A stretch of DNA of 64,000 bases from Syntrophaceae bacterium CG2_30_58_14 (GCA_001873745.1 MNZQ01000116.1:308-64307), one strand, 5' to 3'; positions 652 through 60,600 are shown, numbered from the stretch's first letter. A program made the numbers and translations. The notes: a model not told the origin generated them from the letters alone.

Positions 652-2814
652 TCACTTCCCCATCCCGTAGAGCGAAAAAACGACCATCACGGCCCTGTCG
701 TCCTCGCGATCGGAGACATTGAGTTCCACGTTCCAGCACTGTTTCCGGTATTGCACGCCGTAGGTGGATTCGACGGTCCGGCGATCGAACTGGTTTTGTT
801 TCAGCAGATAGGTCGCGCCGAGGGAAGAGGTCAGAACCGCCTTCAGGGAGAGGTTGATCTCCTCCAGCGTGTCCCGGGTGTAACGATACCCGACGGAGGC
901 CGAATCCCCACGATGATCGGACAGGGTCAGGTCGTAATTGCTCTGTCTCCAATTTCCTGAATTCACGTCGAATTTGTTGCGCGCCGACAGGGAGAGATAG
1001 GGAAGAGGCGCCAGATCCAGCTCAAGATCGACATCACGGAAAGGCCGGTTGTCCTTCCCTGCCCCTGCTACGTCCCGTCTCCCCTCCAGGATGTCATAGG
1101 TCTGACCGATCTTGAAGCGCATCATCTCGCGGTAGCGGACCTTTCCATCCTTCGCCCGCATCCGTGCGAGAAGCGTGTTGGTGACTCCATAGGTCAGGCT
1201 GTGCTGCGCGGGGATCCGTTCCAGAAAATCGGGGGCGTGATCCTGCGATGCGTCGGGGATGAAGGTGTAGGTGAGTTCTGGTCGGATCCCGTGCCGGATC
1301 TTCTCCACTTCCGCACCCTGGACGTCAAAAATGCGGTGCATCTCCGTGGAGAGGGTCGTCCCCAGCGCGAAGATCTCCCGGTCGCCCTGTTTGTCCCCGG
1401 TATCGGTCACGGAATCCGACCGCTCCCAGACATCCCCGCGAAAACCCGCCTGCGGCGTGACCCGGGCATAGGATCCCAGCTTCAGCGGCAGGAAGAGGGT
1501 CGGGCTGATCTCCCCCAGATGCCCTTTCTGCCCCTCCTGACGGAAAAAACGGTCATAGCCGGCGGTGAATTCGAGTTGAAAAGGGCTGCCGAAGAGGGGC
1601 TGCCGGAATCCCGTGAGGGTCGCCTCCGGATATTTCTGCAGCGTCCCATTGTTGTCGGGGGAGGAAAAGTCATCGGTATAGCGCGCCAGGGCGGTCAGGT
1701 TGTACAGGGACCAGTCCTTTGTCAGACGGACCGTGGAATCGAGCGACCCGAGAGATTCATCCCCGAGGAAGGAGACCCGACTGAACCGCCCTTCCCCGCT
1801 CGGGGAATAATGATCCAGATAATAGTTGAAGGAGGAAAAATCCTTGAAATACCAGCGGTCCGACACCCGGCGGATATCGCTTCGGAGGCTGAAACCGTCC
1901 GCAAAGGTTGTTTCGTGGTTGAGGTAATAGGACCAGCGGTTCCGATCATCCTGCCAGTCACGGCTCATGGTCCCGACGCCCTCCGTAACCCGCTTGCGGT
2001 CGTTGATGAAATCACCATAGAAGACGCCGAACGAATCCGCGCCGGCCGCGTAACGAAACTCCACCCCCTCCTTGAATCCCCGTTTCTCTAAATAACGCTG
2101 AAAAAACGTGGCGTCGGCGCTGTCGGAGACGGCCCAGTAGAAGGGGATTTCCACGTCCAGACCGTTTTTATCGCGGGAGTAGGAAAAGCGGGGGAAGAGG
2201 AGGCCGGTCTGGCGCGTTGTCTTGGCGGGAAAGATGAGATAGGGCAGATAGAGGACGGGAAGATCCCTGGCGAGGAATCGGCCATGCTTCAGCGTGCCAT
2301 AGCCATCGACGGTCAATTCGACCTCTTTGCCCGCCAGCCGCCAGTCGGGATCATCCCCATCGCAGGTGGTCACCGTGCCGTTTTCCAGCCGGTAGGTCGC
2401 CTCCGACTTTTTTTCGATCTTCTCTCCCCGGACGTAAAGATGGTTCCGGGCGATGAACATCTTTCCCTCATCCACCGTTCCGGTCCGGGAGACGGTATTG
2501 AACGAGACCTTCTCGCCCTCGAGGAGGTCCTGATCGTTCCTAAGCAGCACATGGCCGACCGCGAAGACCTGGTTCGTGCCGCGGTAAAGGGTCACGGCGT
2601 CGGCCTTCAGATCCCCCCCGGAAAAGGTGATCCGAACCTTTCCCGTCGCGTGAAAGACGTCCCCATCCCCGTCGTAGGCAATGCTGTCCGCCTCAATGGC
2701 GACGGGCAAGGGGACATCTTGCCGCAAGGTGTCCCCAGCCCCGAGCGGTGAAGCCGCCAGGCAGGCTAAGAACATTATTGCTAACAAAAAGCAGACCTTG
2801 TTCAGCCTTTGCAC
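652..2814 (-). CDS. lptD: LPS-assembly outer-membrane protein LptD (OstA family)
   Basis: ORF 652..2859 has an OstA-like N-domain ([20 protein letters not shown]) and a large beta-barrel region ([25 protein letters not shown]). I prefer the GTG at 2814, which gives [21 protein letters not shown] (a signal peptide) and only a 13-nt overlap with folC. The maximal ORF start is 2859. Confidence 0.85.
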
Positions 2815-4139: not shown

Positions 4140-4201
4140 GGATGATGGTTGCCAAAAAAAGGGCGTCTTGTGTTGCAGCTTTGCGGCCTTTTCCGGCAGG
4201 T

Positions 4202-4462
4202 CTAATCCGCCGTCACCTTGAATACCTCGTCACCGGGACGGACGCGGTCCGCTACCCGGATGCCGATATAGTCGCCGGCAACCGCCTGGGCCACCTTCTG
4301 GTTGTTGACCTCCATGGAATCGAGCGGCATGGTCAGATTGGTGGTATGCCCCGTGAATTTCAGGGTATCCCCGACCCTGATCCCGCCATCCGTGATCTTG
4401 ACGGCGGCCACACTCGGTTTGGAAAAAAACTTCACAACTTCGCCGATCCTCTGTTCACCCAT
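4202..4462 (-). CDS. Small translation-elongation-factor-like protein (EF-Tu domain-2-like beta-barrel)
   Basis: MGEQRIGEVVKFFSKPSVAAVKITDGGIRVGDTLKFTGHTTNLTMPLDSMEVNNQKV... resembles the family annotated as 'translation elongation factor-like protein'. ATG at 4462 is preceded by GGAAGGAGGA; the ORF-track TTG at 4480 is part of that RBS. Confidence 0.7.
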   Translation of the reverse strand: MGEQRIGEVVKFFSKPSVAAVKITDGGIRVGDTLKFTGHTTNLTMPLDSMEVNNQKVAQAVAGDYIGIRVADRVRPGDEVFKVTAD

Positions 4463-4524
4463 AGCCGATCCTCCTTCCAATGACGATTCCGGGCAAAGGC
4501 CCGTGCCATAAACACGTTGGAGGG

Positions 4525-4553
4525 AAAATATCGCGTTTTCGATGAAAAGACAA
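4525..4553 (-). promoter_or_regulatory. Candidate sigma-70 promoter (TTGTCT-N17-TATTTT) for the EF-like/folC/lptD unit
   Basis: Minus strand reads TTGTCT (4553-4548), a 17-nt spacer, then TATTTT (4530-4525), just downstream of the rplQ terminator. Confidence 0.35.
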
Positions 4554-4564
4554 GGGGGGAAAAC

Positions 4565-4601
4565 GGGGAAAATAAAGAGGGCGGGTTTTTGGCCCGCCCT
4601 C
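4565..4601 (-). terminator. Rho-independent terminator ending the alpha operon (after rplQ)
   Basis: GAGGGCGGG-N7-CCCGCCCTC perfect 9-bp GC stem (4577-4601), followed on the minus strand by TTTATTTT; 10 nt after the rplQ stop. Confidence 0.8.
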
Positions 4602-5038: not shown

Positions 5039-6058
5039 CTATTCCGCTTCTTCATCCGCCTCTTCCGTTTTTACGACCTTGTCCCACGGCGGGAAATCAA
5101 GCTTCATACCGAATCCCATACCGGATTCCTGCAGGATCTCTTTGATCTCATTCAACGATTTCCGGCCGAAATTCTTGGTTTTCAGCATCTCCGCCTCTGT
5201 CTTCAGAACCAGTTCCCCGATCAGGTTGATCCCTGCGTTCTTCAGACAATTGGCCGAACGGACGGAGAGTTCCAGATCATCCACATGCCGCTGAAGAATG
5301 TCATTGATATCCTCTTCCGTTCCCTCCATCGCGGATGCTTCCTCTTCGGCCTCCGCCTTGGAGAAATTGATGAAGGTATCGAGCTGCTCCTTGAGGATTT
5401 TCGCGGCGTAGGCCACGGCGTCCTCCGGAAGAACGCTCCCGTCCGTCCAGACTTCGAGGATCAGGCGGTCATAGTCCGCAACCTGACCGACACGGGCATA
5501 AGTTACGGTATAATTCACCTTCTTGATCGGCGAAAAGATGGCATCGATGTTGATCGTCCCCTCGGGCTGTTCAGGGTCTTTTTCCTTCTGCGCGGCAACA
5601 TACCCCTTCCCCATCTTGACCGCCATTTCCGCCTTGAAGGAGGCCTTGCCCAGCAGGGTTGCGATATGGTGATCGGGATTGAGGATTTCCACCGTCCCGT
5701 CGGCCATGATATCCCCCGCGGTGATCACCCCTTCCCGGGAGGTATCGATCCGAACGGTCCGCGGTCCCTCCTGATGAAGCTTCAGGCGCACGCCCTTCAG
5801 GTTCAGAATGATATCGGTCACGTCTTCCTTGATCCCGGGGATCGTGGAGAACTCATGGAGAACCCCGTCAAATTTTACGGAAACAATGGCCGCCCCCTGG
5901 ATGGAGGAGAGCAGGACCCGTCGGATTGCGTTTCCCAGGGTTGTGCCGAAGCCGCGTTCCAGCGGCTGACAACTGAACTCCCCATAAAAAGCGGTATGGG
6001 TCGTTTCATCGATCTCAATTCTTTTCGGTTGAATCAAACTGCGCCAGTTTCTCTGCAT
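5039..6058 (-). CDS. rpoA: DNA-directed RNA polymerase subunit alpha
   Basis: 339 aa, [18 protein letters not shown]...[22 protein letters not shown], with a C-terminal domain; sits between rpsD and rplQ. Confidence 0.97.
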
Positions 6059-6096
6059 AATTCCTTTCCCTGCCCTTCGGATACCTGGTGATTGTC

Positions 6097-6723
6097 TTAT
6101 TTGGAATAAAGTTCAACGACCAGTTGTTCCTTAACCGGCATCGTCAAGTCCTCACGGGTTGGAAGCATTTTCACCACACCCTTGAAGTTGGTCTTATCGA
6201 CCTCCAGCCACTGTGGGACCCCCCGCCTGGCAACAGTTTCCATGGCTTCGATGATCCGCTCCACCTTCCGGCTGCCCTCCCTGATCTGGACTTCATCGCC
6301 CTGTTTAAGCAGATAAGAAGGTATATTGACCGGTTTTCCACCCACCAGAAAATGGTTGTGCCGGACCAGTTGTCTTGCCTCCGTACGCGAATTCGCAAAA
6401 CCCATCCGAAAGATCATGTTGTCCAGCCTTCGCTCTAAAAACAGCAGCAGATTGGTTCCGGTAATCCCCTTCTGCCGTTCCGCCTTGGCGAAATATCCCC
6501 GAAACTGCTTTTCCAACAGGCCGTACATCCTCTTGAGCTTCTGTTTCTCCCGCAACTGGACGCCGTAGTCGGAGAATTTTTTCCGCAACTGACCATGATC
6601 TCCCGGCGCAAACCCCCGCCGTTCAAAAGCGCATTTTTCACTGTAGCACCTGTCCCCTTTGAGAAACAACTTCAAACCTTCTCGCCGGCACAACCTGCAT
6701 ACGGAATCCCGATATCTTGCCAA
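6097..6723 (-). CDS. rpsD: 30S ribosomal protein S4
   Basis: [26 protein letters not shown]..., 208 aa. Confidence 0.97.
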
Positions 6724-7217: not shown

Positions 7218-7586
7218 CTATTTCTTCTTGCCTGCAATCGACCTTCTTGGTCCCTTCCGTGTTCGGGCGTTCGTGCTGGTTCTCTGTCCCCGGACGGGAA
7301 GTCCCTTCCGGTGCCGCAAACCGCGGTAGGTCCCGACATCCATCAATCGTTTTATGGACATGGAGATTTCCCGCCGCAAGTCCCCCTCGACCTTCATTTC
7401 CCTGTCGATAATATTCCGGATGGAGGTTATTTCCGAATCGGCAAGCTGATCGGTTTTCGTGTCGGGGCTGACGCCGGCGTCTCGAAGGATCTCTTTCGAT
7501 TTTGCATGCCCGATCCCATAGATATAGGTCAAGGCGATTTCCATCCTCTTGTTTTTAGGTAAATCCACACCCGCAATTCTTGCCAC
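7218..7586 (-). CDS. rpsM: 30S ribosomal protein S13
   Basis: [26 protein letters not shown]... Confidence 0.97.
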
Positions 7587-7781: not shown

Positions 7782-8000
7782 CTATTTTGTTCGGTAAACG
7801 ATTCTTCCCCGCGTCAAATCATAGGGGGAGAGCTCAACCGTAACCTTGTCGCCGGGCAGGATCTTGATAAAGTGCATCCTCATCTTCCCGGATATATGGG
7901 CTAGAACGCGGTGACCGTTTTCCAGTTCCACTCGAAACATGGCATTGGGCAGGGGCTCAACCACCCGGCCTTCAACCTCTATCGCCTCTTCTTTCGCCAT
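7782..8000 (-). CDS. infA: Translation initiation factor IF-1
   Basis: [41 protein letters not shown]..., 72 aa from ATG 8000-7998. The longer ORF (to 8093) is read-through of the palindromic repeats. Confidence 0.95.
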
Positions 8001-8017: not shown

Positions 8018-8043
8018 GGGGACAGATTTCAAATCTGTCCCCC
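8018..8043. repeat. Family-A palindromic repeat GGGGACAGATTT-C-AAATCTGTCCCC(C)
   Basis: Perfect palindrome read directly; 17 nt upstream of the infA ATG. Confidence 0.9.
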
Positions 8044-8066
8044 TGACGTTTCCGATCCCCGCCCCC

Positions 8067-8091
8067 GGGGACAGATTTCAAATCTGTCCCC
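8067..8091. repeat. Family-A palindromic repeat, second tandem copy
   Basis: Identical 25-mer 49 nt from the first copy, 9 nt after the map stop codon. Confidence 0.9.
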
Positions 8092-8100
8092 ATGTCTCCG

Positions 8101-8856
8101 CTACTGCATCCGGCTCAGGATCTCCGGTCCGTTCTCCGTAATCACCACGGAATGCTCAAAGTGAGCCGAAAGTTTCCCGTCCTCGGTGACCACGGTCCAT
8201 CCGTCGGGGAGAATCTTCACCCGGCACCCCCCCTCATTCACCATCGGCTCTATCGCGAGAACCATGCCCTGCCGGAGCTGGATTCCTCTCCCGCGCACCC
8301 CGTAATTGGGAATCTGCGGGTCTTCATGCATGTTTCTGCCGATACCATGTCCAACAAAATCCCGGACAACTGAAAAACCGGCATCCTCGACCCGCTCCTG
8401 CACGGCGGCGGAGACATCCCCCAGGCGGTTGCCCACCCGCGCCTGCTCAATCGCGTCGTAGAGCCCTTCTTCGGTGACTTTCATCAGCCGCTCAGCCTTG
8501 GCTGAAACATTCCCCACCGGAACCGTTATGGCGGCGTCCCCATAATACCCCTTGTAAACAACCCCGAAATCGAGGCTCAGGATATCGCCGGAGAGAAGCG
8601 GCCGGTCGGACGGCATGCCGTGAACCACCTCGCCGTTCACCGATGCGCAGAGAGCAAATGGATAACCGTGGTACCCTTTGAATGCCGGGACAACCCGACT
8701 CTTCCGTGAAAGCGCTTCTGAAAGCCGGTCCAGTTCACGGGTGGTCACACCCGGTTTGACCTTTTCCCTCAGCCCCGCCAGGATCTCTGCAACGATGGCA
8801 TTGCTGGTCCTGAGCTTTTCAATCTCATCCGGCAGCTTCAGGATAATCATGCCCAT
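8101..8856 (-). CDS. map: Type I methionine aminopeptidase
   Basis: 251 aa; [50 protein letters not shown] metal-site motifs. Confidence 0.95.
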
Positions 8857-8886
8857 GATCCCCAGTTTTCGGCGGTCATGCCTGCA

Positions 8887-10194
8887 TCAGCGTCTTCTGG
8901 CAATGCGTCCCTTCTTCATGAACCCCTCATACTGCCTTGTCAGCAGATGGGTTTCGATCTGTCCCGCCGTATCCAGCGCGACGCCGACGACAATCAGCAG
9001 GGCCGTCCCGCCAAAATAGAAAGGGACATTGAAAGAGCTGATCAGAAGACTGGGAAGCACGCAGACGGCGGAGACATAAATGGCCCCCCCGAAGGTCAGC
9101 TTCGTCAAGACGTCATCGATGTACTCGGCTGTCTTCTTGCCCGGCCGGATTCCGGGGACGTATCCCCCGTATTTTTTCATGTTGTCGGCCACATCCACCG
9201 GATTGAAGGTGACCGCGGTATAGAAGAAACAGAAGAAAACGATGAAGGCCACATAGAGCAGCTCATAGCCGACCCGCCCCGGAATCATCGCGCTCGCCAC
9301 CGACTTCATCCAGGGATGCGGAATAAAATTGGCGATCGTCGCCGGAAACATGATGATCGAAGAGGCGAAGATCGGCGGGATGACGCCGGCCGAATTGACC
9401 TTCAGCGGAAGATGGGTCGACTGGCCGCCGTACATCTTCCTCCCAACCACCCGTTTCGCGTACTGTACGGGGATCCGTCTCTGGCCGCTCTCCACAAAGA
9501 CGATGACGCCGATCACAAGCACCATCATCAGGATCAGAATGATGATGAAGAAGATGCCCATCTCCCCCGAGTAGAGGAGGCGGAAGGTATTGATGATCGC
9601 CTCCGGGCCGCGGACGACGATGCCGGCGAAGATGATCAGCGAGATGCCGTTCCCGATCCCCTTCTCGGTGATCTGTTCACCCAGCCACATGATGAATGCG
9701 GTGCCGGCAGTCAAGGTGATCACCGTCATCAGACGGAATGCCCAACCGGTATTGATCACGATGGACGCCCCCGTGGGTCCCGCCATGTTTTCCAGACCGA
9801 TGGAGATTCCGAAACCCTGGATCAAACTGAGGACCACCGTACCGTACCGCGTGTACTGCGTGATCTTTCTCCGACCCGCCTCTCCCTCTTTGGAAAGCTT
9901 CTCTAAGTAGGGGATGGCCACGGTCAGCAGTTGAAGGATGATCGATGCGCTGATGTAGGGCATGATCCCCAGCGCAAAGACTGAAAGATTGCTCAGGGCG
10001 CCGCCCGCAAACATGTCGAAGAGCCCCAGGAGTGTACCCTTCGCCTGCTCGAAGAAGGCCGCCAGAGCCGCCGTATCGATCCCCGGCGTCGGCACATGGG
10101 CGCCGATCCGGTACACCGCCAGGAGGAAAAAAGTAAAGAGAATCCTCTTCTGGAGTTCCGGTATCTTGGAGATATTTTTTAAGCCTTCTAACAA
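8887..10194 (-). CDS. secY: Preprotein translocase subunit SecY
   Basis: 435 aa multi-TM protein, [35 protein letters not shown]... Confidence 0.97.
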
Positions 10195-10195
10195 A

Positions 10196-10639
10196 TCAGA
10201 GGACCTCTACAATGGCGCCGCCCGCGGCTTCGATCTTCGCCCTTGCCCCTCGACTGACCTGATCGACGTTGACGGAGAGGGCGAAATTGATCTCCCCGTT
10301 TCCCAGGACCTTGATCCCATCCACGGCCCCCGATACCAGGCCGACCGCCGTCAGGGTGTCGCGATTCACGACGGATCCCTCCTGAAATCTCTTCAACTGC
10401 TCAATATTGACGATCGCGATGATGCGCCTCATCGGATTCTTGAATCCCCGCTTGGGCAGCCTTCGGGAAAGGGGCATCTGCCCCCCCTCAAAACCGGGAC
10501 GGACACTGTGTCCGGAACGGGCGTTCTGGCCCTTTGCGCCCTTGCCGGCCGTTCCGCCGTGTCCCGAACCATCGCCGCGACCGACCCTCTTTTTCTTTTT
10601 CCGCGAACCCTCCGGGGGCTTCAATGTTCCCAGATTCAT
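10196..10639 (-). CDS. rplO: 50S ribosomal protein L15
   Basis: [34 protein letters not shown]... Confidence 0.96.
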
Positions 10640-10833
10640 TTCCCGTTCCCCTCAACTTCCACCGCAGCCACCAGGTGATCGACCTTCCGGATCATCCCGC
10701 GGATTTCCGGTGTATCTTTCAGCACCACGCTTCGGTTGACCTTGCCCAGTCCCATTCCCCGAATGATCCTGCGCTGCGCCTCCGGTCTGCCGATGCAACT
10801 ATGAACCAATGTAATCTTGACCATTTTACCCAA
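10636..10833 (-). CDS. rpmD: 50S ribosomal protein L30
   Basis: KITLVHSCIGRPEAQRRIIRGMGLGKVNRSVVLKDTPEIRGMI...; the start could also be the ATG at 10824. Confidence 0.93.
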   Translation of the reverse strand: MGKMVKITLVHSCIGRPEAQRRIIRGMGLGKVNRSVVLKDTPEIRGMIRKVDHLVAAVEVEGNGK

Positions 10834-10851
10834 AGTCTATCCCTCTCAACC

Positions 10852-11331
10852 TTAATTTTCAGCAACACCTTTGCCCCTGGCGGCAAGGATCTCGGATGGC
10901 GCCCGCAACTGGCACAGCCCTTCAATGGTCGCCTTGACCAGGTTGTGCGGATTATGCGATCCCAGGCACTTCGTCAGGATATTGTGAACCCCGGCCAATT
11001 CCAGCACCGCGCGCACCGCCCCTCCCGCAATCAGCCCGGTCCCTTCCGACGCGGGCTTCAGCATCACCTTTCCGGCGCCGTAATGGCCGACGACGCTGTA
11101 GGGGATCGTCCGATTTTCTACTGCGACCCGGATCATCGCCTTCTTGGCCTGCTCCATGCCCTTGCGGATCGCCTCCGGGACTTCGTGGGCTTTGCCAAGA
11201 CCGGCGCCGACGGATCCCTTCCCATCGCCAACCACGACCACGGCGCTGAACCGGAAACGTCGCCCGCCCTTCACCACCTTGGCCGTCCTGTTTATCGTAA
11301 TCACCCTGTCGAGAAGTTCCAATTCTTCCAT
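10852..11331 (-). CDS. rpsE: 30S ribosomal protein S5
   Basis: [34 protein letters not shown]... Confidence 0.96.
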
Positions 11332-11382
11332 AATCTTCGTTTCCTACGATCGTCCCTTCGCTGTGGTTTGTCAAATTACGGG

Positions 11383-11748
11383 CTAAAACTTCAGTCCCGC
11401 TTCCCTCGCTCCGTCGGCCAAGGCCTTAACCCTTCCATGATAGAGAAACCTCCCGCGGTCAAAGACAACATTCTCAATACCGGCATCCTGAAGACGCTTT
11501 GCCAGGAGTCTCCCCACCGCCCTGGCCTCATCGACCCTTTTCAAACCGGCGAGGGAATCCCTCAACTCCTTGCTCAGCGTCGAGGCCTCCGCCAGGGTCC
11601 TCCCGGAATCATCGGCAATGGCCTGGGCATAGATATGGACCGCAGACCTGAATACGGAAAGGCGGGGCCGCTTCTCGGTACCCGTCACCTTCCCTCTCAC
11701 CCTCATCTTCCGTTTGCTTCGGAGCTTTTCAATTTTCTTCGTTGCCAA
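11383..11748 (-). CDS. rplR: 50S ribosomal protein L18
   Basis: [31 protein letters not shown]...[26 protein letters not shown]. Confidence 0.96.
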
Positions 11749-11801
11749 TGTCCTACCTCTTCACGGGGTGCGCCGGAACCGGACCGGTCGCACCGGAAAC
11801 T

Positions 11802-12341
11802 TTAGGCGCCTACGGATTTGCCGACTTTGCGTCGGATCTGCTCGCCCAAATACTTGATGCCCTTGCCCTTGTACGGCTCCGGCTTCTTCAGACTTCGAAT
11901 CTCCGCCGCCACGCGACCGACCAACTGCTTGTCGATACCGGAGACCACAATGTTGACCAGCTTATCGACCTTGATATGAATCCCTTCCGGTATCGGATAT
12001 TCGACCGGAGCGGAAAAACCGATGACCAGTTTCAAGGCGCTTCCCCCGACTTCGGCGCGGTATCCGACCCCGGAAATTTCCAGGCTCTTCTCGAACCCGC
12101 TGCTGACCCCCTTGACCATATTGGCCACCAGGGTTCGGACCAGTCCATGCAGGGATCTTTCGATTCTTCCGTCGAACTGCCTTGTGACCTCTACCGTCCG
12201 GTCGCCCAGAATCACATCGACGCCGCCCGGCACTTCCAAGGAAAGCTTTCCCTTGGGGCCCTCAACCCAAATCATGGACTGCTCCCGGCTTACCTTTACA
12301 CCAGCCGGAATTTCCACGGGTATTTTACCAATTCTTGACAT
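11802..12341 (-). CDS. rplF: 50S ribosomal protein L6
   Basis: MSRIGKIPVEIPAGVKV..., 179 aa from ATG 12341-12339. The 15 codons upstream in the ORF track ([15 protein letters not shown]) are translated repeat plus RBS. Confidence 0.95.
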   Translation of the reverse strand: MSRIGKIPVEIPAGVKVSREQSMIWVEGPKGKLSLEVPGGVDVILGDRTVEVTRQFDGRIERSLHGLVRTLVANMVKGVSSGFEKSLEISGVGYRAEVGGSALKLVIGFSAPVEYPIPEGIHIKVDKLVNIVVSGIDKQLVGRVAAEIRSLKKPEPYKGKGIKYLGEQIRRKVGKSVGA

Positions 12342-12359
12342 GAAGCCCTCTCCAAAAGT

Positions 12360-12384
12360 GGGGACAGATTTCAAATCTGTCCCC
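12360..12384. repeat. Family-A palindromic repeat
   Basis: GGGGACAGATTTCAAATCTGTCCCC. It lies 12 nt after the rpsH stop and 18 nt before the rplF ATG; followed on the transcript by ACUUUUGG. Confidence 0.9.
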
Positions 12385-12396
12385 ATCGCTCTTCAC

Positions 12397-12798
12397 TTAC
12401 CACACATTGCAGAGAAGCTCACCACCCAGGCTCAACTCCCGCGCCTCTTTATCCGTCATCACGCCCCTGGAGGTGGAAAGGATGGAAATTCCATAACCGT
12501 TCAGCACCTGAGGGATCTTCTCACTCTTCACATAAACCCTTCGTCCCGGCTTGCTGACCCGTTGAATATCGGTCAGCACCGTTCTCTTTGCATCCGGGTA
12601 CTTCAGATAGATCCGAAGCATATCATGCGTTTTCGGATCCTTCTTGATGTCATAACCGCTGATGTATCCGGATTTCTTCAATACTTTCGCCATATTCAGA
12701 TTGATCCGCGAGTTCAGCACACCCACACTCTTGAAATGAACCCGGTTGGCATTTCTGATCCTGGTGAGCATATCCGCGATCGGATCGGTCATCCCCAT
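12397..12798 (-). CDS. rpsH: 30S ribosomal protein S8
   Basis: MTDPIADMLTRIRNANRV... (start at 12798 or 12792). Confidence 0.96.
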   Translation of the reverse strand: MGMTDPIADMLTRIRNANRVHFKSVGVLNSRINLNMAKVLKKSGYISGYDIKKDPKTHDMLRIYLKYPDAKRTVLTDIQRVSKPGRRVYVKSEKIPQVLNGYGISILSTSRGVMTDKEARELSLGGELLCNVW

Positions 12799-12813
12799 AT
12801 TGCTGCTCCCTTT

Positions 12814-12999
12814 CTACCAGCTCGATTTGATCATTCCGGGAATTTCCCCCTTCAGGGATAAATTCCTCAGGCATATTCTACACATATCAAATTTCCGGTA
12901 ATACGCCCTCGGCCTCCCGCAAATCGGGCACCGGTTATAGCCTCTGACCGAAAATTTCGGTTTTCTGTTGGCCTTCACAATCAAGGATGTCTTCGCCAC
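12814..12999 (-). CDS. rpsN: 30S ribosomal protein S14, type Z (zinc-binding)
   Basis: 61 aa with [20 protein letters not shown] zinc ribbon. Confidence 0.95.
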
Positions 13000-13032
13000 T
13001 CTTACCCTCCAGAGAAATATTCCGCTGTTTTT

Positions 13033-13572
13033 TTAGTTCCTGAACGGCATACCCATCAGTTTCAGCAGTTTCCTTGCCTCATCGTCCGTCTTGGCCGTGG
13101 TCACGATCGCAATATTCATGCCCCTGACCTTATCGATTTTGTCATATTCGATCTCCGGAAAGATGATCTGCTCCTTGAGACCCAGGGCAAAATTCCCTCT
13201 CCCGTCAAACGATTTCAGCGGGATCCCCCGGAAATCGCGAACACGCGGAAGGGCGACGTTGACCAACCGGTCGAAGAATTCGAACATCCGTTCCCTTCGC
13301 AGGGTGACACGGCAGCCGATCGACATCCCCTGGCGGAGTTTGAAGGTCGCAATGGACTTCCTCGCCTTGGTGATGACCGGCTTCTGCCCCACGATCGCGG
13401 TTATCTCTGCCGCCGCGCTGTCCAGAATCTTGACGTTCTGAATGGCCTCCCCGAGCCCCATGTTGACGACGATCTTCACCATCCTGGGGACTTCCATCAC
13501 ATTCTTGTAATGAAACTCCCTGGTGAGAGCGGGAACCACTTCCTTGGTGTAGTAATCTTTTAGTCTTGCCAT
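13033..13572 (-). CDS. rplE: 50S ribosomal protein L5
   Basis: [39 protein letters not shown]... from ATG 13572-13570. Confidence 0.95.
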
Positions 13573-13583
13573 TTTCCCTTTGC

Positions 13584-13904
13584 CTATGTATCCAGTATCT
13601 CGTGACATTTCGCGCAGACACGCACCTTTTTCCCATCTTCCAGGATCTTGTATCCAATCCGGACGCCGATACCGCATTTGTTGCACAGATACATCACGTT
13701 GGAAACGTGAATCGGCCCCTCCTTCTCAACGATGCCGCCCTTGCCCTTGGCATCCGCTTTCTTGTGCCGTTTGATGAAGTTGATCTTCTCGACAACAACC
13801 CGCTCCTTGTCGGCAATCAGGCTCTGGATCTTCCCCGTCTTCCCCTTCTCTTTGCCGGCGATCACCTTGACGGTATCCCCTTTTTTCAGTCGCTTTCCCA
13901 GCAT
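13584..13904 (-). CDS. rplX: 50S ribosomal protein L24
   Basis: [21 protein letters not shown]... KOW motif. Confidence 0.95.
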
Positions 13905-13945
13905 CTTAATGTTCCTCAGTCGCTCTCTTTTCCCCGGAAGGCGCC

Positions 13946-14314
13946 CTATAAAACCTCGGGGGCCAGGGAGATGATCTTCATGAACTGTTTTGCCCGCAGC
14001 TCGCGCGCGACCGGCCCGAAGATTCTCGTTCCAACCGGTTCCAGTTGGTTCGTGATGAGAACGGCGGAATTATCATCGAACTTCAGGTATGAACCGTCCG
14101 CCCGCCTCACCTCTTTGACCGTTCTGACGACCACCGCCTTCATCACATCGCCCTTCTTCACCTTTGAATTCGGCAGGGCCTCCTTGACGGCAATGACGAT
14201 GACATCGCCCAGGCTGGCATATCGTCTCCTGGACCCTCCCAGCACCTTGATACAGGCCACCTTCTTGGCGCCCGAATTATCCGCTACGTTCAACATCGTC
14301 TGCATCTGAATCAT
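13946..14314 (-). CDS. rplN: 50S ribosomal protein L14
   Basis: [33 protein letters not shown]... Confidence 0.97.
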
Positions 14315-14335
14315 AACAACACTCCATTGCGCAAT

Positions 14336-14593
14336 CTACCTTGCCTTCTCCAGGATCTCCAGCATCCGCCACCGTTTGTCTCTGCTCAGCGGCCGGAACT
14401 CAACAATGAGAACCTTGTCACCCACTTTACAGACGTTCTGCTCGTCATGGGCCTTGCATTTGACATAACGCTTGATATACTTGTGAAAGATCGCATGCTT
14501 CACGAGCCTTTCCGCCCGGACGACGACCGTTTTATCCATCTTGCTGCTGACGACGACGCCCTTGATGGTGATCTTGTTGCCGCGTTGTTCCAC
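14336..14593 (-). CDS. rpsQ: 30S ribosomal protein S17
   Basis: [32 protein letters not shown]... Confidence 0.95.
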
Positions 14594-14784
14594 TACTTTA
14601 CCTCCTTTTCAACCAGAACCGTTCGGACACGGGCGATATCCCTGCGAACGTGGCCGAGCGTGGCCGGAGAGTCCAGTTGCCCGGAGGCATGGCGCATGCG
14701 GAGCTTGAAATAATCCTCGACAAGCTCGCGGTTCTTCTGCTGCAACTCATCTAAGCTAAGATCTCTGATCTCTTTAATTTTCAT
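14593..14784 (-). CDS. rpmC: 50S ribosomal protein L29
   Basis: [37 protein letters not shown]..., 63 aa from ATG 14784-14782. Confidence 0.93.
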
Positions 14785-15196
14785 CAGACATTTCCCTCGA
14801 AAGAAACGTAGTGCCGATGGGAAGCTTATGGGCCGCCAGCGTGAAGGCCTCCTTCGCGATCTCTTTTGAAACCCCTTCAATCTCATAGAGCACGACCCCC
14901 GGCTTGATCACCGCCACCCACTCTTCCGGGGCGCCCTTTCCCTTTCCCATGCGGGTTTCGGCCGGCTTTCGGGTCACGGACTTGTGCGGAAAAATCCGGA
15001 TCCAGATCTTGCCGCCCCGCTTGACGTGCCGGGTCATGGCCACGCGCGCCGCCTCGATCTGCCGCGCTGTAACCCAGCCGCATTCGGTCGCCTGCAGGGC
15101 ATACTCGCCGAAGGCGACGGCATTCCCCCGCGTGGCTTTTCCACTCATCCGGCCCCTCTGTAATTTCCTATATTTAACCCTTTTCGGCATTAACAT
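14774..15196 (-). CDS. rplP: 50S ribosomal protein L16
   Basis: [23 protein letters not shown]... Confidence 0.97.
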
Positions 15197-15264
15197 CGTT
15201 CAAAACCCCTGTTCTCGCTGCTTATTCGGATAAGATCCTCGAAACGCCGGCTTTTTTGAAAGGC

Positions 15265-15912
15265 CTACTTCGCCGCCTCTTTCTTGCTGGGCAATACCTC
15301 TCCATGAAAAATCAGGACTTTGACGCCGATCAGACCATAGGCCGTGTGGGCCTCCGTAAAACCGCAATCGATATCGGCCCTCAGGGTATGGAGGGGGACA
15401 CGGCCCTCTCTGTACCACTCCGATCGGGCCATCTCCGCCCCGCCGAGCCTGCCGCCACAGTTCACCTGGATCCCTTTGGCGCCGAACTTCATCGCCGAGG
15501 TGACACATTTCTTCATCGCCCTGCGGAACGCGATGCGCCTTTCTAATTGTTGCGCGACATTTTCAGCCACCAGTTGCGCATCAATCTCCGGTTTGCGGAC
15601 TTCAAGGATATTGATGATCACTTCGCTCTTCGTGATGGTCTCGAGATCCTTTTTCAGTTTTTCGATTTCGGATCCCTTTTTCCCAATAATAATCCCGGGG
15701 CGGGCCGCGTGAATATTGACTTTGGCCTTGTTGGCAGCCCTTTCGATTTCTATCCTGGAGATACCGGCGTGGTAGAGCTTCTCCTTGAGAAACTTTCTAA
15801 TTTTCAGATCTTCATGGAGCAATTCGGAATAATTTTTCTCCGAAAAACATTGAGAACGCCACGTCTTGATACCACCCAACCTCAACCCGATCGGGTTAAC
15901 CTTCTGCCCCAA
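15265..15912 (-). CDS. rpsC: 30S ribosomal protein S3
   Basis: [20 protein letters not shown]...KH domain. Confidence 0.97.
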
Positions 15913-15931
15913 CCTCTCACCTCCTCAAGTC

Positions 15932-16264
15932 TTACCGTTCATCCAGGACCACGGTGATGTGACTCATCCGCTTCTTGATCGAAGCCGCCCTTCCCTGCGC
16001 TCTCGCCCGCCAGCGCTTCAGGGAGGGGCCTTGATCGACAAAAATCTCCTTCACGTAAAGGATATTCTCATCGATGTCGGGATTCTGCTTCGCATTGGCC
16101 AGCGCCGACAGGATCACCTTGCTCACAGGTTCGGCCGCATATTTTCGCGTAAAAAGGAGGATCTGCTTCGCCTCCCCGACCTTCTTTCCTCTGACCAGAT
16201 CGACAACCAGCCGCATCTTCTGCGGCGACATCCGAATATACTTGGCAACTGCTCTTGCTTCCAT
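15932..16264 (-). CDS. rplV: 50S ribosomal protein L22
   Basis: [32 protein letters not shown]..., 110 aa from ATG 16264-16262. The upstream ORF extension reads through the repeat. Confidence 0.95.
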
Positions 16265-16301
16265 AGCTGACTCCAAACCGCCGCTGGGAACCATCCCGTT
16301 T

Positions 16302-16330
16302 GGGGGGACAGATTTCAAATCTGTCCCCCC
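16302..16330. repeat. Family-A palindromic repeat (extended G6/C6 ends, 29 nt)
   Basis: GGGGGGACAGATTTCAAATCTGTCCCCCC; 4 nt after the rpsS stop and 37 nt before the rplV ATG. Confidence 0.9.
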
Positions 16331-16334
16331 GATT

Positions 16335-16616
16335 CTACTTGCGCAGCTTCGTTTTGCGGTCTCCTGCGTGGCTGTAAAAAGTTCGGGTTGGCGCAAATTC
16401 GCCCAATTTATGGTCAACCATGTTTTCGGTCACAAAGATCGGAATGAATTTCTTCCCGTTGTGTACCGCAAAGGTCTGTCCGATCAATTCCGGGGTAACG
16501 GTGGAACGGCGCGACCAGGTTTTGATGACCGTCTTGTTCCCCGCGGATTCCTGCCTCCTGACCTTTTCCAGAAGACTTTCCTCAATGTATGCACCCTTCT
16601 TAATTGAACGTGCCAC
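16335..16616 (-). CDS. rpsS: 30S ribosomal protein S19
   Basis: [19 protein letters not shown]...[31 protein letters not shown]. Confidence 0.97.
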
Positions 16617-19414: not shown

Positions 19415-20608
19415 CTATTCCAGAATCTTGCTGACAACACCGGCGCCGACGGTCCTGCCGCCTTCCCGGATGGCAAACCGGAGCTGCTCCTCCATCGCGA
19501 TCGGTGTGATCAGAGTCACTTCCATCTCAACATTGTCGCCGGGCATGACCATCTCCACACCCTCCGGGAGATTGGCCACGCCGGTCACATCCGTGGTCCG
19601 GAAATAGAACTGCGGACGATAGCCGTTGAAGAAGGGGGTATGCCGGCCGCCTTCCTCCTTCGTCAGGACATAGACCTGCGCCTTGAACTTGGTGTGCGGC
19701 GTGATCGAACCCGGCTTGGCCACGACCTGCCCTCTTTCCACCTCCTCGCGCTTCGTGCCCCGGAGGAGAACCCCGATGTCATCGCCGGCGCGCCCCTCGT
19801 CGAGCGTCTTGCGGAACATCTCCACCCCGGTGCAGACGGTCTTGAAGGTCGGCCGGATCCCGACGATCTCGACTTCATCGCCCGTCCGGACGATACCGCG
19901 ATCGACGCGGCCTGTGACGACCGTGCCGCGGCCGGAAATGGTAAAGACATCGCCAACCGGCATCAAAAACGGCTTGTCCAGATCGCGAACCGGCATCGGA
20001 ATGTAGGTATCGACGGCTTCCAGAAGCTCCCAGATGGATTTCACATCCGGCGAGTTCGGATCGTCGGCCTCCAGGGCCTTCAACGCCGACCCGCGGATAA
20101 TGGGAATGTCGTCACCCGGGAAATCATACGCCGTCAGCAGTTCCCGCAGTTCAAGCTCCACCAGATCGAGGAGCTCGGGGTCATCCACCAAATCAACCTT
20201 ATTCATATAAACAACGACATAGGGAACCTGGACCTGACGGGCAAGGAGAATGTGCTCCCGGGTCTGAGGCATGGGACCATCGGACGCCGCAACGACAAGG
20301 ATCGTGCCATCCATATGGGCGGCGCCGGAAATCATGTTCTTGATATAGTCGGCATGGCCCGGACAGTCAACATGGGCATAGTGTCGTTTTTCCGTCTGAT
20401 ATTCCACATGCGAGATGTTGATGGTGACCCCTCTCTCCTTTTCTTCCGGAGCATTATCAATGGAATCAAAGGGTCTGAATTCGGCCAATCCCTTAGAGGC
20501 CAAGTGTTTTGTGATCGCGGCCGTCAATGTAGTCTTTCCATGATCAACATGACCGATGGTGCCGATATTCAGATGCGGCTTCGTCCTCTCAAATTTTTTC
20601 TTAGCCAT
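19415..20608 (-). CDS. tuf: Elongation factor Tu
   Basis: [33 protein letters not shown]..., 397 aa. Confidence 0.98.
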
Positions 20609-20675
20609 CTCTACCCTCCTTAAACGTTGAATGGTTCGTTTGTTTTTGTTCCAGTCTTATTGAATCATTTCCCCA

Positions 20676-21146
20676 TTAAAATCGATAATGGGCAAAGGCT
20701 TTGTTGGCTTCGGCCATCTTGTGGACGGCTTCCCTCTTCTTGACCGCCCCACCCCGATTGTTCGCCGCATCCATCAGCTCTGCGGCCAGTTTTTCCCGCA
20801 TCGTTTTTTCTGAACGTTCCCGCGCATGGGTAATCAGCCAACGAATCCCGAGGGCAACCCGGCGGGAGGGAATCACCTCCGTCGGCACCTGATACGTCGA
20901 TCCCCCAACACGCCTCGATTTGACCTCGATCACCGGCTTGACATTGTTCACGGCCTTTTCAAAAATATCGACCGGCGTCTCCTTGACCCGGTCCTGAATG
21001 ATATCAAAGGCCCCATACAGGATGGACTCCGCAATGCTTTTCTTTCCCCGCTTCAGGAGGCTGTTGATGAACTTCGCCACCAGCCGGTTGTTGTATTTCG
21101 GATCCGGCAGGATCTCCCTCTTGGTAACTACTCTTCTCCTCGGCAT
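20676..21146 (-). CDS. rpsG: 30S ribosomal protein S7
   Basis: [37 protein letters not shown]... Confidence 0.97.
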
Positions 21147-31078: not shown

Positions 31079-31320
31079 TCTTCAACCTCCTTTCCCATCT
31101 AATCCGGTCCTTCCGGATGGGGACACCTTGCGGCAAGGTGTCCCCGTTTAGAAAACCCCGTTGAAAAAGTCAGAGAACACAAGCAACATACAGGACAATT
31201 TCCCCGGCCAAAAAGGCCGCTTATCCCAGTCTCGGCAGGCCGACCGACCCCGTTTAAACTTCCTGTACCTGCTGTCTCAGACCCGTTTTCATCTCCCATA
31301 GCCCGGCCAGGGCCATGGCA
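31079..31320 (-). promoter_or_regulatory. rplJ 5' leader (probable L10(L12)4 autoregulatory leader / internal promoter region)
   Basis: 242-nt ORF-free gap before rplJ. The minus strand can form a long imperfect helix (GAGACAGCAGGTACAGGA ... TCCTGTATGTTGCTTGTGTTCTC) enclosing smaller hairpins, the architecture expected of L10 leaders. Not checked against a covariance model. Confidence 0.45.
31119..31145. repeat. Family-B palindromic repeat GGGGACACCTTG-CGG-CAAGGTGTCCCC
   Basis: 27-nt palindrome read directly, 40 nt upstream of the rplJ start. Confidence 0.9.
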
Positions 31321-32025: not shown

Positions 32026-32122
32026 ACCTCAAATCGAAAACCACCGCCGGGGACGGGGATTCTCTGAAACTTTTCCACTTAAGACGCCCGCCGGCACATC
32101 CCCCGGTGTTCTGCCGGAAGGC

Positions 32123-32149
32123 GGGGACACCTTGCCGCAAGGTGTCCCC
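32123..32149. repeat. Family-B palindromic repeat, opposite centre orientation (…CTTG-CCG-CAAG…)
   Basis: GGGGACACCTTGCCGCAAGGTGTCCCC, 3 nt after the rplK stop codon. Confidence 0.9.
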
Positions 32150-32152
32150 GCG

Positions 32153-33446: not shown

Positions 33447-33523
33447 TGGCAGGCCAGGAGGGACTTGAACCCCCAGCATCCGGATTTGGAGTCCGGCGCT
33501 CTATCCATTAGAGCTACTGGCCT
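33447..33523 (-). tRNA. tRNA-Trp (anticodon CCA)
   Basis: Minus strand AGGCCAGTAGCTCTAATGGATAGAGCGCCGGACTCCAAATCCGG...GGTTCAAGTCCCTCCTGGCCTGCCA folds as a cloverleaf with encoded CCA. Confidence 0.93.
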
Positions 33524-33555
33524 ATCCGATCGATCAAGGCGGCGCCTCTTTCCGC

Positions 33556-33705
33556 TTATTTCGTTTCCCGGTGCAGCTTATGGGATCGGCAGAATTTGCA
33601 GTATTTTTTCATCTCCAGCCGATTCTGCATGGTCCTTTTGTTCTTGGTCGTCGTATAATTCCGCTGTTTGCAATCCGTACAAGCCAATGTAATGATATTT
33701 CTCAT
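33556..33705 (-). CDS. rpmG: 50S ribosomal protein L33
   Basis: [49 protein letters not shown], 49 aa. Confidence 0.93.
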
Positions 33706-33726
33706 AATTAAACCACCTAACCTGAA

Positions 33727-33802: not shown

Positions 33803-33917
33803 TGGTTGCTTCTTTAAACCGAAGCGCCACTTTCCCCCGCCGCCGATCAGAATCCGCGATGATCATGATCGGCTGCGCATTCCTCGGGGAAGCAAGCAGC
33901 CCCATACCGAACAAAAA

Positions 33918-57675: not shown

Positions 57676-60600
57676 TTAAATCCTCCGGCAGCCGGGGCCG
57701 GTCAGGCTGCTTCGCCCCCCGGTCCCGGGGGTGACCTGGATCTGCGTGCCGATGCGCTCCTTGAGCGCCGGGACGTGCGAGATGACGCCGATCAGCTTGC
57801 CTTCCTGGTGCAGTCCCGCCAGCGTCGAAAGCGCCGTTTCGAGGGTCTCGTCGTCGAGGGTTCCGAACCCTTCATCGAGGAAGAGAGAATCCACGCGCAC
57901 ATTCCGGCTCGCCATCTGCGAGAGGCCGAGCGCCAGAGCCAGGCTGACGATGAAGCTTTCGCCGCCGGAGAGATTCTTCGTGGAACGGATCTCGCCCGCC
58001 TGATAGTTGTCGATGACGTTCAGTTCCAGCGGTTGCAACGGGTCGCGGATGAGCATGTAGCGGTCCGTCATCTTCTTTAGCTGGAGGTTGGCATGCACCG
58101 TCATCCTCTCGAAGGTCAGCCCCTGGGCAAAGTTCCGGAATTTCTTGCCGTCAGCGGAGCCAATGAGCAGATGCAGGTCGTCCCAACGGGCGCACTCCTT
58201 TTTCCGGGCGTCCAGGGTCCGGAGGCGATCCTGCTGCTTTTCCTTCAATTTCTCATTTTCACCCAGACTGTTTGTGATTCCGCCGATATCGACCCGGATC
58301 TGTCTTAAGCTTGAATCACAGGCGCCGATCGTTTCCCGAAGCGTCTCGACGGGCTGATCCGTCAAGCGTCTCTCCCGTTCGGCGGCCAGCGCCTCCGATC
58401 GGTCCCTCCGGCGGGCGTCCAGTTCCGTTTTCTCCTTGACCAGGGCCTTTTCCCGCGCCGCGAGACTCTCCCGCGCCTCTTCGGTCAGGCAGGCGGACCG
58501 ATAGCCGGCCTCGTCCTCGAACCCCGCCTTGATGATCCGCTCCGTTAGGTTCGCCTCCGCCTGCGCCAGTTCCCCCGCCCGCTTTCCCGTCTTTTCCTGC
58601 AACAGCGCGATTTTCTCCTTCAGGGCGCCGATCTCTTTTTCCATTCGCCCGTACTCTTCGCGCGCCTTTTCAAAAACCTTTCCCGCCCGCTCCACAGCCT
58701 CCGCCAGCCACTTTTCCTCCTGGTCGGCGTTCCTCTCCCCGAAGAGTTCCCGGCGGGAGGCGCTAAGGGATTGAACCTGCATGAGCAGGTCGTCGCGATC
58801 CTTGCGCCTTGCGGCGAGATCCCTTTCGAGGCTCGAAAGCAGCGCGTTGTCCTTGTCCAGCGCGGCCTTCAGATCGCCGATCCCCTTCTCCGCGGCGGTT
58901 TTTTCATCCTGCCTTGTCTGCCACGCCTCTCTGCGCCCGGTGAGCTCCCGCAACAGGGCGTCGATTCCGGTTACGGGAATCTGCGTGATCCCGAAGGGTT
59001 CCACTCCCTTGAGCGCAGCCGTGCGGGCCTTTCGAGCCTCCTCCCCCAGGATTTCCTGCTCCCGGATCAACCGTTCATACTCCCGACCGGCCGTCTCCCG
59101 TTGATGCCGCGCCTCCTGCAAGGCCTTGTCCGACTTCTCGGATCCCGTCCTCAACTTCTCCAGGGCCGTTTGCGCCGCCTTCTCTCTTTTGCTTTTCTCT
59201 TCCGCAACGGAAACAATGCCGGAAGTTTCGGCCATTTTCAACCGGACATCGGCAAGAGCCGCGCATATGGGGACAGATTTAAAATCTGTCCCCATATGCG
59301 CGATACCCAGCTTCAGCAGCGCTTCACCACACGCCTTTTCGTCCGCATCCCGTGCGGCCCTTTTCTCCCCCATCTCTTTTTCCGCATGCCCGATCTCCGC
59401 CGCTGTTTTAACCTGCTCGGTTTCCAGTCTTCCCAGCGTCTCGGAGGTCTTTTTGTATTCGGCCTTTCTCTTTTTTAGCCCCGCTTCCGCCCTGTTCAAT
59501 TCGGGGAGATTGCCCTTCGCGTAAGGATGATCGGTGGCGCCGCACAGGGGGCACGGCCTGCCGTCCTCCAGCCGCTTCCGTTCCTCCTCGAGGTCGCGGA
59601 TCCGTCCAAGGAGAGCGACCTCCGTTTCGAGGGTTCCGATTCCCTTTTCCAGGACCGCTTTTTGCCCCGAGCAGGACTGGATCTCACCCGAGATCTTCTG
59701 ATGACCGTTATGGAAGGCTTCAAGGACCGTTTTCAGGCCTTCCAGCGCCCGACCCGTCTTGTCGATCCGGTCGATCATTTCGCCCGCTTGAATCAGAAGA
59801 CGCTCGCGCTCCTTCAGCGCATCCACCCGATCGCGCCACCGGCCGATGTCAGATCCTTTGAGGATGGCCGCGAGCTCAACGGTTAGACGCCGAAGTTCCG
59901 TCTGCCCCTTCTCGAATTCCCGGCGGGATTTCTCATGGTCGGTTTCGAGCTTGCCGCAGGTTAAACCGGCCGACGCCTTTTTCCCGTCTGCCGCGGCAAC
60001 CGCTTTCTTCGCCTTGATCTGCTTCGCCTCAGAGTCGCGAAGCGACTCGAATTCCCTTGCGATTACGGCGAGGTTGGTCAAAAGCGCGGCATCGGCGGCG
60101 TGTCCAGCCAGGTAGTCCCGGATCGCTTTTAGGTCGCCCTGCGCCTTTTTCAGCGCCCGTTCGAGATGTTCGATGTTGCTTTTAAATCCCCTCCCCTGCC
60201 GCTCGCCATCCCCGATCGCCTTGACCTTCTCTGCGACCTGTTTTTTCTGCTCCCCCAGCCTGGCATCGAGCTCGCGCACCTTCTTGAGGAGCTCCGCTTC
60301 GACGACCTGCCGGGAGCGCGCCTCGGTCAAACCGGCTTCCGCGGCCTGTTTCCGATTCAGCGCAGCGGCGCATGCCTTCTCCTTTTCGGGCCGTGTGGCG
60401 GCGGCGCCGGCGAGCTCCCCGGTTTCACTCCCCTGCTGAATCCGCAGCGCGGCCACCCCCCGGTAATCGCCTTCCAGACCGAGGGCCTTGCGGGATTTCG
60501 CCAATCGGATCGATTCCGGCGCAAAGGCAAGCCTGCGCTCCTCGAAATCCAGCAGCAGCCCGTCCAGTTCCGTGATCTCCCTCTCCAGGGCGGCCACCCG

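Follow-up and report, generated by a model that had tools for sequence, protein, structure and literature searches.

The locus described here raises the question of why one perfect palindrome recurs in the intercistronic spacers of ribosomal-protein operons on a 64,000-nucleotide stretch of DNA from Syntrophaceae bacterium CG2_30_58_14 (hereafter the window). The palindrome, which we call family A, reads GGGGACAGATTT-N-AAATCTGTCCCC, and a pattern search finds five exact copies of this 25-mer in the window, with 0.00 matches expected by chance in 100 dinucleotide-preserving shuffles of the same DNA. On balance, we think it probable that the 25-mers are non-autonomous mobile repeats, resembling repetitive extragenic palindromic (REP) elements, that derive from the termini of TIRYT-type transposase genes and probably depend on a TIRYT enzyme. 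Judged from its letters, the unit would consist of the outermost 12 nt of a TIRYT-type terminal inverted repeat (TIR), present twice in inverted orientation with one base in between.

An earlier note on this DNA had listed four exact copies, two in the map/infA spacer and one each in the rpsH/rplF and rpsS/rplV spacers. All four are present as exact GGGGACAGATTTCAAATCTGTCCCC, but the first ends at 8042 rather than 8043 and a fifth, at 59269, was missed. The gene identities given for the spacers are confirmed by Pfam, which also confirms tuf, rplA, rplK and an SbcC-like ATPase in the window. The four operon copies do share a C at the centre of the plus strand; what was overlooked is that the genes lie on the minus strand, so that the mRNA centre is G, and that a sister palindrome, family B, occupies three further sites (2710, 31119 and 32123). 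The copies were said to start 4-12 nt past the upstream stop codon, which holds for three of the four (9 nt past the map stop at 8101-8103, 12 nt past that of rpsH and 4 nt past that of rpsS), the copy at 8018 lying 58 nt past the map stop. As had been noted, the 8018 and 12360 copies end 17 and 18 nt before the ATG codons of infA (8000) and rplF (12341), and the ends of the rpsS/rplV copy are indeed extended; this last copy ends 37 nt before the rplV ATG (16264). The hairpins leave the Shine-Dalgarno sequences of infA, rplF and rplV clear. The 8067 and 8018 copies form a tandem pair with a 24-nt spacer, and comparable pairs with spacers of 14-47 nt are found in other genomes.

An assembly artefact or a sequencing adapter can be ruled out as the source of the repeat, as identical copies are found in 10 independent same-species metagenome assemblies (99.4-99.97% identity) and the 25-mer is present in isolate genomes. 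An Rfam scan of the window returned only tRNAs and no match at the repeats, and a literature search for the palindrome sequence returned only eukaryotic primers and similar matches.

The same 25 letters are found well beyond this species. In a scan of one genome per species, the exact 25-mer was present in at least 120 stretches from at least 64 species-level assemblies. Among the matches listed, the carriers are Syntrophales, Syntrophobacterales, Desulfobacterales and Desulfurivibrio (Thermodesulfobacteriota), Nitrospirota, many Gammaproteobacteria, including the isolates Marinobacter sp. ELB17, M. gelidimuriae and Halorhodospira abdelmalekii, isolates of Desulfamplus (D. magnetovallimortis) and Desulfurivibrio, the complete chromosomes OZ242169, OZ244846 and OZ242265, and metagenome-assembled genomes (MAGs) labelled Coprothermobacterota, Chloroflexota, Clostridium and Salibacteraceae. 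The flanks of the 142 copies compared are unrelated; at the centre, 80% of the copies have G or C and the other 20% A or T. We found no larger shared element around the copies, nothing beyond the palindrome being common to the loci, and no recurrent neighbour protein, the open reading frame (ORF) clusters from 120 loci consisting of housekeeping families only. An apparent orientation of the centre base relative to transcription elsewhere (C in 21 cases, G in 6) was discarded, as the crude ORF calling was confused by stop-free palindromes and GC-rich antisense ORFs.

Phage DNA carries the repeat as well. The 25-mer is found in 15 IMG/VR stretches, and at least 12 exact copies lie on a single 54-kb tailed-phage contig (IMGVR_UViG_3300033489_000011; L153, L154 and L160) that encodes portal, head protease, decoration and major head proteins. 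The three copies checked on this contig all lie 5-10 nt past the stop codons of structural genes, and some of the others translate as GDRFQICP in naive ORFs.

One gammaproteobacterial MAG contig (L023) has REPIN-like doublets of a related hairpin at 5860-6150 and 7400-7560, of the form GGGGACAGA-(8 nt)-TCTGTCCCC, inverted and ~100 nt apart; these share only a 9-bp foot with family A.

The fifth window copy lies within a coding region. The palindrome at 59260-59302 is in frame in the SbcC-like gene (57676-61428, minus strand; 1224-1250 aa), where 40 nt of palindrome (14 aa) stand in place of 37 unrelated nt (13 aa) in the closest homologue, which is 81% identical at the DNA level. The 13-aa linker of the homologue, DAAAEGSAGKVRE, is thus represented here by a 14-aa linker and the reading frame is kept. 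Enzymes of the SbcC/Rad50 type cut hairpins and palindromes in DNA. Among the database homologues of this SbcC-like gene, many are fragmentary gene calls. Going by the names of its homologues, the window appears to stem from a Thermodesulfobacteriota or Syntrophales-like organism.

Is the repeat simply inherited at its sites? Ten relatives with the same InfA protein are 79-88.5% identical to the window over the operon, and the exact 25-mer is absent from all ten. Spacer alignments show variant or decayed hairpins at their orthologous spacers. The rpsH/rplF spacer holds CGGGGACAGATTTGAAATCCTGGCCCC in L121, GGGGGCGGATTTGAAATCCGTTCCC in L125 and GGGGACGGAT-GGAC-ATCCGTGCCC in L122; the map/infA spacer holds two variant copies in L125 and, in L121, the decayed family-B-like unit GGGGACACCTTGCGGCAAGATGACCCC where the second copy would be; and in the rpsS/rplV spacer the copies of L121 and L125 are decayed, while L122 and L123 have no copy there. 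The rplN/rplX spacer, just 10 unrelated nt in the window and in same-species strains, contains GGGGGCAGATTT-CTAA-AAATCTGTCCCC in L121 and a variant in L125, indicating gain or loss. The predicted RNA energies of the relatives' hairpins range from -2.4 to -18.2 kcal/mol, compared with -18.7 to -25.3 kcal/mol in the window. That four perfect copies (100 nt) persist here while sister lineages show decay points to ongoing maintenance, homogenisation or re-insertion, and implies that simple inheritance is insufficient. The earlier note had reasoned that an ancestral, operon-specific structure would be conserved at orthologous spacers and lack copies elsewhere; the comparison leaves each of these two expectations half true, in that variant or decayed hairpins do occupy orthologous sites, yet the element is widely dispersed.

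The anatomy of the copies suggests how such turnover might come about. A direct repeat indicative of target-site duplication is lacking at 127 of 171 copies, the remainder being near chance. Instead, at least 3 extra complementary bases in the flanks extend the palindrome in 18% of copies (1.6% expected), and at least 6 do so in 10%. Variants alter both arms together, for example CAGATTT/AAATCTG to CGGATTT/AAATCCG, and solo and tandem half-sites are common. Together, the missing duplication, the inverted flank extensions, the paired arm changes and the half-sites are consistent with a single-stranded hairpin substrate and with copy-choice or template switching, and they do not agree with DDE cut-and-paste; the absence of a target-site duplication is what HUH chemistry leads one to expect. 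The 12-mers also act as the termini of elements. At 2897-4587 of a MAG contig (L101), three paralogous elements of 177-229 nt end in the 14-nt termini GGGGACAGATTTAT...ATAAATCTGTCCCC, and a nested palindrome is present in two of the three and absent from the third. In the first of these elements (e1) there is a 38-aa ORF (MAARPKSSAGSEVLDEIEKIIERW...), which in the second (e2) is cut after 27 codons by the nested palindrome; the start of an ORF of this type was not found in the third (e3).

The termini that best match the palindrome arm are those of TIRtrons. These are TIRYT genes, encoding Y1 HUH transposases with a C-terminal helix-turn-helix, and their TIRs have the consensus GGGGWSAS (PMC3733652, PMC6006769). 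They correspond to TnpA_Y1 subclass 2.1 (Quentin et al. 2018, PMC6006769) and to RAYT group 1 (Bertels et al. 2017, PMC5581495), described as the RAYT group with the most members and the widest spread, and some of their TIRs are dispersed as singles, dimers and clusters, some being self-complementary (Di Nocera et al. 2013, PMC3733652). Both GGGGACAG of family A and GGGGACAC of family B match GGGGWSAS, and GGGGACAG-ATTT, GGGGACAG-GATTT and GGGGTCAGGTCT are found as TIR variants. A TIRYT consensus query retrieved at least 8000 proteins of ~280 aa, each with Y1_Tnp and a helix-turn-helix. Among the 120 matches listed, identity to the consensus is 70-78% and the source names include Nitrospirota, Thermodesulfovibrionia, Gammaproteobacteria, Acetothermia and Binatia; TIRYT proteins are more than 70% identical across the phyla to which the carriers of the 25-mer belong.

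The left TIR begins 46-47 nt ahead of the ATG in 9 of the 10 TIRtrons or remnants inspected and 60 nt ahead of it in L179; its usual form is GGGGTCAGGTCTTG(A/C)A. A metagenome scan for GGGGACRGATTT with codons for MARPLR 20-50 nt further on yielded three matches, one a genuine but decayed TIRtron (L147) and two unrelated. The TIR of this decayed TIRYT gene, at -47, is GGGGACAGATTTTGCATT; it begins with the 12 nt of the palindrome arm and agrees with a TIR of contig L168 at 17 of 24 nt. The common, or canonical, TIR GGGGTCAGGTCTTGAAAT agrees with the arm at 9 of 12 positions, after which comes TTGAAAT, as it does in the centre-G copies. Canonical TIRs are also scattered through intergenic DNA in a Nitrospirota contig (L145) and a Syntrophales contig (L179).

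Several observations on TIRtrons themselves were made along the way. The 7.4-kb Syntrophales MAG contig L179 has at least five canonical TIR copies (...AAGACCTGACCCC), at 2374, 2506, 4826, 6493 and 7406; copies adjoin a run of N and lie near the contig end (7406/7414), and the related contig L181 begins with one, so that canonical TIRYT TIR repeats appear to fragment assemblies. At 2455-3450 of L168, one TIRtron is nested in another, a TIRYT gene with the TIR GGGGTCAGCATCGCATT lying inside the 5' part of a TIRYT gene with the TIR GGGGTCAGGTCTTGCATT. Many truncated TIRYT N-termini, of 29-83 aa, are present in the protein database.

As to enzyme and chemistry, we infer the following course of events. 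A TIRYT-like enzyme, encoded by a single-copy gene elsewhere in the genome, would recognise the GGGGACAG foot, probably on the palindrome hairpin in single-stranded DNA, and would copy or move the unit and leave no target-site duplication. Template switching within the strand would keep the arms symmetric and at times lengthen the palindrome into its flanks. Only harmless insertions would survive, in the gaps between stop codon and Shine-Dalgarno sequence of packed operons or, rarely, in a tolerant in-frame linker such as that of sbcC. Within the mRNA, the unit would be a stable hairpin lacking a U-tract that lets transcription read through, and at most it might modulate 3'-end stability or translation of the upstream cistron. 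The TIRYT family is highly conserved and moves horizontally, which, together with carriage by phage, could bring the same 25 letters into several phyla. A bolder version of this proposal is that a single clade of Y1 HUH enzymes (TIRYT, RAYT group 1), conserved and horizontally mobile and not known to have a high-copy repeat or a function, uses the 25-mer as its minimal substrate. The 25-mer would then be a sequence-invariant selfish palindrome that spreads across phyla, partly by phage, and invades the most constrained operons by copy-choice or replacement, not by cut-and-paste; we put this forward tentatively, as less likely than not.

A number of observations weigh against derivation from, and dependence on, TIRYT. 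The only TIRtron found with a GGGGACAGATTT TIR is the decayed one of L147, and the search that found it itself required that 12-mer; nine other TIRtrons carry GGGGTCA[GA]GTCTT or GGGGTCAGCATCGC TIRs. Among the TIRtrons inspected, no intact TIRYT gene with the palindrome-arm TIR was found, the short N-terminal remnants having GGGGTCA-type TIRs only (GGGGTCA[GA]GTCTT, and GGGGTCAGCATCGC in the nested element of L168) and the remnants in L166 and L167 no recognisable left TIR. The earlier note had suggested looking for a RAYT- or IS200-Tnp-like gene, and tblastn and motif searches for IS200, RAYT and TIRYT detected no Y1 transposase gene, either in the 64-kb window or in the ~1 Mb of loci that bear the palindrome. 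No TIRYT gene was found in viral contigs, from which a palindrome built from the canonical TIR is likewise absent, and a TIRYT search on plasmids gave only 11 distant matches. Known TIRs are at least 20 nt long, of which the palindrome retains only 12, and published TIR families are only moderately abundant. Finally, the insertion in L101 carries extra flanking DNA and the sbcC event is a replacement, both of which suit copy-choice better than precise transposition.

On the mRNA, the window copies are predicted to form stems of 11-13 bp with 3-nt loops and energies of -18.7 to -25.3 kcal/mol, the hairpin proposed earlier being slightly shorter (10-11 bp). On the sense strand, where the tails are GAACGAAA, ACUUUUGG and AAACGGGA, no copy is called as terminator-like, and the genuine operon terminator, with its U-tract, lies downstream of rplQ at 4601-4577; the view that the hairpins are not ordinary terminators is thereby borne out. 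The repeats have a visible effect on annotation. In public gene calls for the same species (L131-L135, JGI), rplF is called as 194 aa rather than the true 179, rplV as 120 rather than 110 aa and infA as 75 rather than 72 aa, and the false N-terminal extensions (MGTDLKSVP...) that the earlier note foresaw for these three genes arise because the stop-free palindrome supplies an upstream ATG. Public annotation is thus corrupted at three essential genes.

The hairpins might instead be RNA structures selected in ribosomal operons because they tune ribosomal protein stoichiometry, whether by serving as processing sites, by blocking 3' exonucleases or by regulating translational coupling. Their fixed placement just past stop codons with the next Shine-Dalgarno sequence clear, their presence at the same three spacers in relatives of 79-88% identity and the same placement in a phage structural operon would all agree with this. 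However, such placement is also expected from purifying selection on insertions, the identical sequence occurs at unrelated loci, within coding regions and in many phyla, and a purely structural constraint would not fix all 24 arm bases. Moreover, the orthologous hairpins of relatives are decaying (to -2.4 kcal/mol) or absent, which argues against a strongly selected RNA role, and we consider this explanation unlikely. The narrower idea that the hairpins are intrinsic terminators or attenuators within the operons, suggested by their strong GC-clamped stems and by the short U run ACUUUUGG after the 12360 copy, is the least probable of those considered and can very nearly be dismissed: no copy resembles a terminator when read on the sense strand, a proper U-tract is seen at the true terminator downstream of rplQ, and the essential genes rplF, rplV and infA need read-through.

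Other explanations place the function in DNA. A perfect dyad with a free central base, invariant across phyla, is what one might expect of a double-stranded site for a conserved dimeric protein (parS-like, nucleoid or regulatory) that is not mobile, and the TIRYT C-terminal helix-turn-helix could itself bind such a site. But the symmetric two-arm changes among copies (CAG to CGG), the solo and tandem half-sites and the 177-229-nt elements bounded by half-sites, the gain, loss and replacement at given sites, the copies inside ORFs and phage DNA and the patchy taxonomic spread are all difficult to reconcile with a fixed binding site, which we hold to be no likelier than a selected RNA. Slightly less likely again is a miniature inverted-repeat transposable element (MITE) of an unidentified DDE insertion sequence with 12-bp terminal repeats GGGGACAGATTT. 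The TIR-spacer-TIR layout and the longer elements with the same termini would suit it, but 25 nt is far shorter than known DDE MITEs, no insertion sequence recurs near the copies at 120 loci, there is no target-site duplication signal, and the flank repeats, seen in 14-18% of copies, are inverted rather than direct. A canonical REP/REPIN family mobilised by RAYT group 2 or 3 would share the size of 25-43 nt, the intergenic clustering, the BIME-like tandem pairs and the in-frame intragenic copies. The defining mark of REP elements, though, is a GT[AG]G (or CGTC) tetranucleotide at the 5' foot of an imperfect, GC-rich palindrome of 20-40 nt, and none of 142 copies has either tag; the element begins GGGG, its palindrome is perfect and its flanks are unrelated, REP families are species-specific whereas this repeat is identical across phyla, and no RAYT was found in the window or the ~1 Mb of loci. 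We regard a canonical REP family as quite improbable.

Family B, GGGGACACCTTGC-S-GCAAGGTGTCCCC, has the GGGGACA/TGTCCCC ends in common with family A. Its three window sites are listed with the family A copies and the adjoining genes in the table.

Table. Copies of families A and B in the 64-kb window and genes assigned by Pfam at the family A spacers.
Feature	Position	Strand	Description
Family A, infA-proximal copy	8018..8042	-	exact match; RNA hairpin -18.8 kcal/mol; 10 independent assemblies
Family A, map-proximal copy	8067..8091	-	exact match; starts 9 nt past map stop (8101-8103)
Family A, rpsH/rplF spacer	12359..12385	-	25-mer core 12360-12384; perfect arms of 13 nt
Family A, rpsS/rplV spacer	16302..16330	-	25-mer core 16304-16328; perfect arms of 14 nt; -25.3 kcal/mol
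Family A, inside sbcC-like gene	59260..59302	-	25-mer core 59269-59293; centre A on + strand; arms of 21 nt
Family B, folC/lptD spacer	2710..2736	.	GGGGACATCTTGC-C-GCAAGGTGTCCCC, one arm mismatch; also in same-species contigs
Family B, rplA/rplJ spacer	31119..31145	.	L10 leader region; GGGGACACCTTGC-G-GCAAGGTGTCCCC
Family B, rplK/rplA spacer	32121..32151	.	15-nt arms; directly past rplK stop (32153), upstream of rplA
infA	7782-8000	-	
map	8101-8856	-	
rplF	11802-12341	-	
rpsH	12397-12798	-	
rplV	15932-16264	-	
rpsS	16335-16616	-	

Elsewhere in the window, tuf (19415-20608) comes directly after rpsG (20676-21146), with no fusA between them (19415-21146). In same-species contigs, an 86-aa ORF with a faint match to EF-Tu domain 2 follows rplQ (window ~4202-4480). 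Six tRNA genes, all but one of them on the minus strand, are clustered at 33450-35079 beside the nusG-rplK region.

Should the derivation from TIRYT termini be correct, the biochemistry of TIRYT would become directly testable with an easily synthesised 25-nt palindrome, and the palindrome could be the long-missing substrate of the largest RAYT group, for which neither an activity nor a substrate has so far been assigned, and repeats only of moderate abundance. It would also serve as a marker for horizontal spread, including that by phage, and for following selfish DNA in essential operons as it is gained, lost and homogenised. The terms TIRYT and TIRtron occur in just two works of the literature searched.

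How, then, does the repeat compare with known systems? Like the Rickettsia palindromic elements, it can be tolerated in frame in a coding gene (here sbcC), but those elements are 100-150 bp long and confined to one genus, and here 40 nt replace 37 nt of linker. With the Neisseria dRS3/NIME repeats it has in common conserved outer inverted termini around a variable inside (families A and B; GGGGACAGAC-TTAA-GTCTGTCCCC), although the sequence is unrelated and dRS3 elements are phage integrase targets in one genus. The REP/BIME/REPIN elements associated with RAYTs in E. coli, Pseudomonas and Stenotrophomonas are closer. They too are short extragenic palindromes, located in intercistronic spacers and at 3' ends, arranged in tandem or inverted arrays and occasionally inserted in frame; they decay if not maintained, and a single-copy HUH Y1 enzyme is presumed to move them in trans. 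The size found here (25-43 nt) agrees with that of REP elements, but the palindrome is perfect; the 64 kb contain five copies of family A and three of family B. The assignment to REP/BIME-type elements in the earlier note is accordingly right as regards a dispersed, REP-like repeat that is not operon-specific, and wrong in the particulars: the 25-mer has no GT[AG]G head, is a perfect palindrome and is neither species- nor lineage-specific, and its likely partner belongs to another TnpA_Y1 subclass, one with a helix-turn-helix tail. The closest described kind is the TIRYT/TIRtron TIR repeat, not the RAYT/REP repeat. Differences are evident here also, in that our palindrome is just 2 x 12 nt abutted and letter-identical in at least 64 species, lies in ribosomal-protein operons, a coding region and phage, and has no cognate transposase gene beside it or in the window. 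The TIR repeats nevertheless share with it the GGGGWSAS termini, the intergenic dispersal as singles, dimers and clusters, self-complementarity in some published families, a wide and patchy taxonomy with signs of horizontal transfer, and an arm that is 12/12 identical to the TIR of one decayed gene and 9/12 to the common TIR. What is new here is a repeat that is letter-identical across phyla, as a variant of the known TIR-type repeats.

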